DNA of 64,000 nt from Escherichia coli. GTDB taxonomy: Bacteria; Pseudomonadota; Gammaproteobacteria; Enterobacterales; Enterobacteriaceae. The stretch is taken from the NCBI RefSeq assembly GCF_003334405.1, contig NZ_QOWM01000008.1; one strand, 5' to 3'. The notes below the pieces were generated by a model. It did no database searches, was not told the DNA's origin, and saw only the letters and a program-made list of their open reading frames with translations. The position numbers and the translations under genes are program-made. This document shows positions 48,522 through 49,127 of this stretch, in pieces. Position 1 is the stretch's first letter, and every line of letters begins with the position of its first letter.

Positions 48522-48656
48522 TCACATCTTGTTGCTACGTATAGCGACTTCTGCCTGCCAGAGATCCCAGTCGTTGCTGCGTAAAGCCTGCACAGCCTGG
48601 TTGTAAGTGATACCGCAACAATCCATCAAATACTGAACTACTTCGTAATGCACCAT
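48522..48656 (-). CDS. ydaG: Small prophage protein YdaG (44 aa)
   Basis: Internal start MVHYEVVQYLMDCCGITYNQ within ORF 48522-48728. Confidence 0.55.
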   Translation of the reverse strand: MVHYEVVQYLMDCCGITYNQAVQALRSNDWDLWQAEVAIRSNKM

Positions 48657-49127
48657 CTTATCTATCCCCTTAACGCCGGGTGTACAAATTTTGCGTTCAG
48701 CGGAAAACCTGGTACCGGGAAGAACCACTTAGCGGCAGCTATCGGGAATCGCCTGCTGAAAGACGGTCAGACAGTGATTGTGGTTACCGTGGCTGATGTT
48801 ATGAGTGCCCTGCACGCCAGCTATGACGACGGGCAGTCAGGCGAAAAATTTTTGCGGGAACTGTGCGAAGTGGATCTGCTGGTTCTTGATGAAATTGGCA
48901 TTCAGCGCGAGACGAAAAACGAGCAGGTGGTACTGCACCAGATTGTTGATCGCCGGACAGCGTCGATGCGCAGCGTGGGGATGCTGACAAACCTGAACTA
49001 TGAGGCCATGAAAACATTGCTTGGCGAGCGGATTATGGATCGCATGACCATGAACGGCGGGCGATGGGTGAATTTCAACTGGGAGAGCTGGCGTCCGAAT
49101 GTCGTCCAGCCAGGAATTGCGAAGTAA
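48648..49127 (+). pseudogene. ydaV: N-terminally truncated DnaC-like replication/helicase-loader gene (ydaV homologue); only the AAA+ half is present
   Basis: Homology begins at Walker A FSGKPGTGKNHLAAAI and runs through VDLLVLDEIG and the DnaC-like C-terminus; the N-terminal domain is absent and the 5' end overlaps the ydaG start. Confidence 0.6.

Follow-up and report, generated by a model that had tools for sequence, protein, structure and literature searches.

A Rac-type prophage in the 64-kb (64,000-nucleotide) stretch of Escherichia coli DNA analysed here, hereafter the window, carries the early gene ydaG next to the 3' part of a DnaC-like gene, ydaV, on the opposite strand. The initial annotation took this for an abrupt junction left by a deletion of the repressor, cro/cII-like and replication-initiator genes, and asked how kilR, ralR and sieB are silenced without a cognate repressor. 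The locus raises the questions of how this arrangement arose, what was lost with it and how the remaining early genes stay quiet.

Results

The prophage and its retained early genes

The element is integrated at ttcA, with intR and xisR at its left end, as in Rac; positions 39460-42441 match the K-12 ttcA-intR-xisR-ralR region at 97%, and the annotation of a near-identical locus in E. coli 64EVA agrees with this ttcA-intR-xisR layout. It also carries the Rac-type gene set (recE/recT, racC, ydaE, kilR, sieB, ydaF and ydaG, together with trkG), and the rzpR-trkG-ynaK segment at 57511-59941 is 99.7% identical to K-12. The genes around the junction are as follows.

40460..41695 and 41697..41912, minus strand: intR and xisR, both ORFs intact
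42193..42387, minus strand: ralR toxin gene (annotation transfer)
42451..43503 and 43515..46586, minus strand: RecT-family recombinase and 1023-aa RecE, at the distal end of the leftward operon
47208..47429, minus strand: kilR, encoding an FtsZ inhibitor (annotation transfer; Pfam KilR)
47871..48359, plus strand: sieB, superinfection exclusion, transcribed toward the junction (64EVA and K-12 annotation; Pfam SieB)
48356..48511, minus strand: ydaF (DUF1391), second gene of the leftward early operon (64EVA coordinate transfer; Pfam DUF1391)
48522..48656, minus strand: ydaG, an intact gene of 44 codons, 100% identical to K-12 YdaG (phrog_14709)
48683..49127, plus strand: 3' remnant of ydaV, a DnaC-like helicase loader gene (residues about 100-248 of 248, nt 296-747)
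49150..49911, plus strand: DUF1627 gene, a distal gene of the former rightward operon, parted from its promoter
49927..50349, plus strand: DUF977/Ren-like exclusion gene, likewise a distal gene of that operon parted from its promoter

The ribosome-binding site of ydaG (AAGGGGA, 48663-48669) is kept, and 20 nt of native upstream sequence are left. Further along the leftward operon, the 3' region of recT/recE (42441-44817) is not K-12-like, with a 350-aa RecT and a 1023-aa RecE compared with 269 and 866 aa in K-12; this difference is a module exchange inside the recombination genes.

A deletion between two 7-bp direct repeats

The region was compared by BLAST with the K-12 Rac reference locus (NC_000913 1411000-1436000; K-12 locus coordinates count from its start). 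Two arms were obtained, window 44817-48682 corresponding to K-12 locus 4618-8483 at 99.6% identity and window 48676-49599 to K-12 locus 11279-12202 at 98.2% identity. Their overlap is 7 nt long and consists of the heptamer CCGGGTG, present in one copy at 48676..48682, which is the junction. The abrupt passage from ydaG to the Walker A half of a DnaC-like gene was thus confirmed, at the coordinates originally assigned to it, and the proposed alignment with K-12 Rac places its endpoints at K-12 locus 8477 and 11279, with the heptamer as 7-bp microhomology.

K-12, strain 7/2 and 64EVA each carry CCGGGTG at the two endpoints (in 64EVA at locus positions 13677 and 16285), and these are its only copies in the 3.4 kb of 64EVA that were scanned. 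E. coli PSS-07 has it at the left site, and in a base-by-base comparison with K-12, 7/2 and PSS-07 the identity switches exactly at the heptamer. The left repeat spans nt 20-26 upstream of the ydaG start codon, while the right repeat is ydaV nt 296-302 (codons 99-101). The missing segment amounts to 2,802 bp against the K-12 layout and 2,608 bp against 64EVA.

A direct repeat is therefore present at both undeleted ends and a single copy is left at the junction, as in a short-homology deletion. No unaligned base separates the two arms, nor is there an IS element, att-like site or inserted DNA between them; given this seamless junction, an IS-mediated or site-specific deletion was ruled out. Replication slippage or RecA-independent illegitimate recombination is the typical source of such short-homology events and would be the mechanism suggested here by the length of the repeat, 7 bp, which is its sole basis.

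Content of the lost segment

The closest intact relative is E. coli 64EVA (NZ_CP138399.1), which shows approximately 100% identity to a 24-kb query, with extra DNA. Window 35000-48682 corresponds to 64EVA locus 1-13683 with 6 mismatches in 13.7 kb (99.96%), window 48676-52643 to 64EVA locus 16285-20253 (a right flank 99.9% identical over 4 kb), and window 52632-61000 to 64EVA locus 21591-29959. The only structural differences are the 2,608-bp segment and an IS421 insertion, both in 64EVA. These near-perfect flanks indicate that the deletion is recent. In 64EVA the lost segment encodes the following, by annotation and translation.

Helix-turn-helix repressor, 139 aa, CI-like
Divergent Cro-like protein, 84 aa
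YdaT (cII-like), 94% identical to K-12
Initiator, 262 aa, 81% identical to YdaU over its C-terminal 124 residues and different in its N-terminal part
ydaV codons 1-99 (99/248, 40%) of the DnaC-like loader gene

By tblastn, no homologue of the repressor (both types), cro (both types), YdaT or the initiator was detected in the 64-kb window, and PHROG scans of the remaining genes yielded no repressor. Within the window the element lacks the repressor and cro-like genes of a lambdoid immunity region. The suggestion that repressor, cro/cII-like and initiator genes had been deleted is thereby upheld by the comparison with 64EVA and K-12, and no homologue of a repressor, which would have spoken against it, was found elsewhere in the 64-kb window.

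Overall, the lost 2,608 bp would have comprised the 5' leader of the leftward operon with a PL/OL-like region, the CI-like repressor gene, an OR/PR-like region, the cro-like gene, ydaT (cII-like), the YdaU-type initiator gene and the first 99 codons of the loader gene. Lambdoid phages have their origin within the initiator gene, and by this rule the origin should have been lost too.

Operators and early promoters

Repeat analysis of the intact 64EVA region revealed related 15-mers in two clusters:

64EVA locus 13831 and 13855, 24 nt apart: operator-like sites on the ydaG side, between ydaG and the repressor gene
64EVA locus 14356, 14389 and 14413, opposite strand: operator-like sites on the cro side, between the repressor gene and cro

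The operator-like motif GWACTNNNNGTWCAT has 5 sites in the 30-kb 64EVA locus compared with 0.03 expected, a count that is partly circular because the motif was built from these same sites. The clustering is free of that circularity, and the two-plus-three pattern is the lambdoid OL/OR arrangement. All five sites lie inside the deleted segment; the motif has 0 matches in the 64-kb window, where repeated operator sites flanking a repressor gene were not found.

Neither in the ancestral segment nor around the junction did the consensus promoter and terminator scans rise above chance level. The single promoter-like match in the ancestral segment is a repressor-side site (64EVA locus 14400-14372). 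No sigma-70-like leftward promoter was found by consensus scan in the 64EVA spacer between ydaG and the repressor gene, and the scans gave no exact position for PL. At the window junction the scan returned no promoter-like site, and between the junction and a GC-rich hairpin at 50520-50544 it returned one 9/12 match, which is at chance level. The hairpin lies between a pair of leftward cargo genes and the junction, and looks like a two-way terminator.

The case for promoter loss is built on position, on motif distribution and on analogy with dicBp of the Qin prophage. In Qin, the interval from the repressor gene dicA to ydfA contains the PL-like dicBp together with three operators, dicBp activity goes up 22-fold when dicA is deleted, and no further promoter of the operon was detected (bioRxiv 10.1101/2023.04.14.536235). 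Relief of RacR repression in K-12 Rac raises ydaG, ydaF, ydaE and racC about 40-fold, and kilR, ydaC and ralA more than 70-fold (PMC6765115). The leftward genes of the window (ydaG, ydaF, kilR, ydaE, racC, recE and recT) are thus probably without a native promoter, and the rightward genes (the ydaV remnant, the DUF1627 gene and the ren-like gene) would have lost theirs too. With the repressor, the operators and both early promoters gone together, the prophage would be locked rather than derepressed, and a homoimmune repressor encoded outside the window would find no operator here to act on.

Upstream of ydaG in 64EVA, between the operators and the gene, lies an unannotated stretch of about 153 nt (64EVA locus 13666-13818; K-12 locus ~8466-8615) that is conserved between immunity types and of which 48657-48682 survives in the window. 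Copies at 85-89% identity occur in many E. coli genomes without an annotated feature, including one upstream of ydfA in a Qin-like prophage (Qin-like locus 2501-2660). On its minus strand the stretch contains a 20-codon ORF (MNMTAGFKFCSAAVSSATRR), and the stop of this ORF overlaps the ribosome-binding site of ydaG. It has no Rfam match at E up to 1 and its RNA fold is no better than that of shuffles (z = -1.0); on these grounds no claim of an RNA element is made.

How kilR, ralR and sieB stay quiet

In phage lambda, sieB acts in exclusion and is expressed in lysogens; it is not a toxin gene. For ralR, the RalA antitoxin RNA is intact on the plus strand at 42016..42194 (Rfam RF02694, 212.5 bits; gathering score 170). 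Expression of kilR in K-12 depends on read-through that is normally stopped by NusG/Rho (PMC5793797), and removal of Rac confers bicyclomycin resistance through kilR (PMC4632033). The racR gene of K-12 could not be deleted alone, even in a kilR mutant; it is essential only because of ydaS/ydaT, and deletions of racR-IGR-ydaS and of sieB to ydaU are viable with kilR intact (PMC5700373). Among 154 genomes, ydaS was never found without racR (PMC5700373).

The observation that the toxic early genes are left without a repressor holds for the window, where none was found; the puzzle drawn from it largely dissolves, since the operators and, probably, the early promoters were deleted as well, leaving nothing for a repressor to act on, and RalA was kept. 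Any residual read-through would be covered by silencing of the K-12 type, that is by Rho/NusG termination before kilR, by RalA and by H-NS.

Such silencing might instead carry the whole burden, if the early genes were not promoterless and were transcribed by read-through or from a weak internal promoter, with Rho/NusG, H-NS and RalA keeping them silent. The retention of RalA, the control of kilR in K-12 by NusG/Rho-dependent termination with activation by read-through (PMC5793797; PMC4632033), and the failure of the scan to locate a clear PL in the ancestral spacer would all suit this reading. Transcription of sieB could run rightward into the ydaV remnant, and leftward transcription could arrive from the gene pair at 50556..52039, the hairpin at 50520-50544 notwithstanding. 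We nevertheless consider it unlikely, as all operator-like sites and the entire spacer between the repressor gene and ydaG are deleted, the interval from the junction to the hairpin offers no promoter-like site beyond the chance-level match, and the homologous Qin operon has a single major promoter at exactly the deleted position. A spontaneous deletion between the two 7-bp direct repeats, taken together with promoter loss, is very probably the explanation of the locus.

The gene pair at 50556-52039 (minus strand) consists of two leftward cargo genes of 184 aa and 310 aa, situated between the Ren-like gene and a hok/sok module. They have no PADLOC match, and their PHROG matches are to unknown-function families only. 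A 1-nt homopolymer change near 50720 shortens the first of them in 64EVA.

Immunity type of the ancestor

The initial annotation named racR, ydaS, ydaT and ydaU as the missing genes. Their positional equivalents are indeed gone, but the ancestral repressor and Cro were likely not RacR and YdaS. The repressor and Cro-like protein of 64EVA and 7/2 do not resemble RacR and YdaS to any meaningful degree (36% over 33 residues at best), and a region of the 64EVA type (at least 80%) is present in 450 of the 5,426 complete genomes. From these comparisons the ancestor was most probably of the non-K-12 immunity type, with the lost genes being positional equivalents of racR/ydaS/ydaT/ydaU; racR and ydaS should not be assumed as the deleted genes.

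It is quite improbable that the deletion arose in an ancestor of the K-12 immunity type, with the loss of racR, ydaS, ydaT and ydaU on 2,802 bp, even though K-12 has the CCGGGTG repeats at the same two places and is 99.6% identical along the left arm. Identity along the right arm is 99.9% to 64EVA and 98.2% to K-12, 64EVA also agrees with the 26-kb element as a whole at 99.9-100%, in recE/recT and in a region absent from K-12 too, and the module of the 64EVA type is common enough to be carried by those 450 genomes.

The ydaV remnant and the chimeric ORF

The ydaV remnant is 98.7% identical to YdaV residues 97-248 (tblastn), and FSGKPGTGKNHLAAAI is encoded on the plus strand from 48696 onwards, at a distance of 40 nt from the ydaG ATG. 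The AAA+ motifs Walker A (GKPGTGKN) and Walker B (DLLVLDEIG) are both retained. The alignment of full-length YdaV with E. coli DnaC (6QEL) runs from one end to the other (over 2-241, E 3e-77), and the 56-residue N-terminal fragment of DnaC, 6KZA, is matched by YdaV residues 2-57, a stretch that is absent from the remnant. It had been noted that the N-terminal half of the DnaC-like protein is missing; the N-terminal part is indeed gone, the exact loss being 99 of 248 residues, including the 6KZA-aligned stretch. The N-terminal domain of DnaC binds DnaB. Lacking residues 1-99, and with them the N-terminal helicase-binding domain, the remnant, judged from this alignment, cannot be a working helicase loader.

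At the junction the remnant is read as part of a longer ORF:

48648..49127, plus strand: chimeric ORF of 159 aa, MHHLIYPLNA (10 novel residues) followed in frame by GCTNFAFSGKPGTGKNHLAAAI / YdaV 100-248

Its start is an ATG antisense to the ydaG start, created by the junction, and residues 12-156 correspond to the DnaC-like loader family phrog_50 (E 4e-59; Pfam IstB_IS21). No promoter-like site was found near the ORF by scan, and no Shine-Dalgarno-like sequence was seen by eye upstream of the ATG at 48648. The chimeric ORF is probably a pseudogene. As it is called in several assemblies, it should be annotated as a ydaV pseudogene.

We also considered whether the remnant is not inert, with constitutive sieB transcription expressing the truncated loader along with the Ren-like gene, and the loader fragment interfering, as a dominant-negative decoy, when superinfecting Rac- or lambda-like phages replicate. 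No terminator is predicted between sieB and the chimeric ORF, and such a decoy would explain why the same 3' part of ydaV is kept both in the window lineage and in the unrelated PSS-07, with endpoints 38 nt apart. We hold this to be very improbable, and keep to the reading of the ORF as a probable pseudogene.

Occurrence of the junction in other assemblies

The exact sequence of the chimeric 159-aa ORF is present in the protein collection. Three separately assembled contigs with the identical junction match the window at 100% identity over the whole length (12.5, 7.2 and 2.8 kb):

NCBI draft GCA_024592615.1 (162.7-kb contig)
Logan ERR3469010 (listed for 6 samples)
Logan ERR1948962

Since three independent assemblies are identical, the junction is a genuine allele and not an assembly artefact, one inherited in an apparently small clonal group. 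Among 5,426 complete E. coli genomes none had the two arms adjacent, and no intact Rac-type prophage collinear with the junction was found. The ydaV gene is at least 80% complete in 1,501 of the 1,517 genomes having it, with 16 falling below that, and the 5,426 complete genomes offer no support for a common deletion hotspot beyond the single case of PSS-07.

It is scarcely credible that the arrangement is instead an assembly artefact or a mosaic layout occurring naturally in some Rac-type prophages. Mosaicism is usual in lambdoid prophages and the initial annotation drew on one layout, but the survey of complete genomes turned up only PSS-07 as a near case, with a different deletion, the junction cuts the conserved gene ydaV mid-domain, truncation of that gene is rare, and a 7-bp repeat is too short to collapse an assembly, let alone three that agree base for base.

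State of the element

An element without its control region could no longer replicate or make a lysis/lysogeny decision, replication after excision being precluded by loss of the initiator gene. Excision of K-12 Rac is governed by XisR, RpoS and H-NS (PMC4632033). In the window, excision may persist in principle via IntR/XisR; the right attachment site lies beyond the window. The prophage was already defective. In the ORF at 61595..62716 (plus strand), a terminase small-subunit N-terminus (residues 1-138) is fused to the mid-part of central tail fibre J (residues 136-365), which implies that the head genes and most of the tail genes were lost in a further internal deletion whose junction lies near 62.0 kb.

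The distal part of the element holds further features. The hok/sok module lies at 52295-52643 (sok RNA, 105 bits; hok ORF, 52465..52620); in 64EVA IS421 follows directly after it, with a 12-bp overlap of the alignment arms at window 52632-52643. In the late region, a match to the sRNA family STnc100 (83 bits; gathering score 47) at 55259-55445 (plus strand) precedes a pair of TolA-like genes (55556..55984 and 56135..56530). At 59688-61404 (plus strand) a ParB/Srx-domain gene, which in its N-terminal part fits a PADLOC type II methyltransferase model, precedes a 317-aa gene of the PHROG family named beta-glucosyl-HMC-alpha-glucosyltransferase; these two are possible DNA-modification cargo.

Discussion

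The locus is a case of ordinary prophage decay through a short-repeat deletion, and represents a new allele, not a new phenomenon or principle. It provides a natural example of a defective prophage becoming fixed, in which one deletion takes the switch and the start of replication together. According to K-12 genetics such a combined loss is tolerated, while losing the repressor by itself is lethal, and the viability of the deletion is in this sense predicted by published work. The host keeps possibly useful genes, namely recET, kilR, sieB, the ren-like gene, hok/sok and trkG. Either selection, through removal of cro/cII-like toxicity and of the risk of induction, or neutral decay could account for the outcome.

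K-12 Rac (PMC5700373, PMC5700377, PMC5917428) occupies the same ttcA site, has intR, xisR, ralR/RalA, recE, kilR, sieB, ydaF and ydaG on one side of the control region, and shares the other flank with ydaV, a ydaW-type gene and trkG. The intact Rac-type module of K-12 and the nearest relatives, consisting of repressor, divergent cro/cII-like and O/P-like replication genes, is wholly absent from the window. The likely ancestor differed from K-12 Rac in having a heteroimmune repressor/cro pair and a different N-terminal domain of the initiator, and the window keeps about 8 kb (49.6-57.5 kb) that K-12 Rac has lost. With E. coli DnaC (6QEL, 6KZA) the ydaV remnant shares Walker A and Walker B, without residues 1-99.

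The dicA-dicBp-ydfABC-dicF-dicB region of Qin (bioRxiv 10.1101/2023.04.14.536235) has the same order of repressor, operators with a PL-like promoter, and an operon of DUF1391 and division-inhibitor genes. A Qin-like prophage also shares the leader of about 153 nt found upstream of ydaG. Qin retains its repressor and promoter and is inducible, whereas the window element has lost both.

PSS-07 (NZ_AP027673.1) has an independent deletion in the same module, which also removes ydaT and the initiator, with its right endpoint at ydaV nt 334 compared with 296 here, a distance of 38 nt. In contrast to the window, PSS-07 retains racR, the operators and ydaS codons 1-22, and the microhomology is 2 nt; the result is an in-frame YdaS(1-22)-YdaV(112-248) fusion with a broken Walker A (PSS-07 locus 7266-7745). 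A second deletion in PSS-07 fuses recT and recE remnants (PSS-07 locus 3603-4288).

The closest experimental counterparts are the engineered K-12 deletions of racR-ydaS and sieB-ydaU (Krishnamurthi et al. 2017, PMC5700373), which likewise removed the repressor, the divergent promoter region and the toxic cro/cII-like genes, and were viable with kilR. The event in the window differs from these in being natural and scarless, in having occurred between 7-bp repeats in a prophage of a different immunity type, and in also taking the leftward leader with its operators, the initiator and 40% of ydaV.
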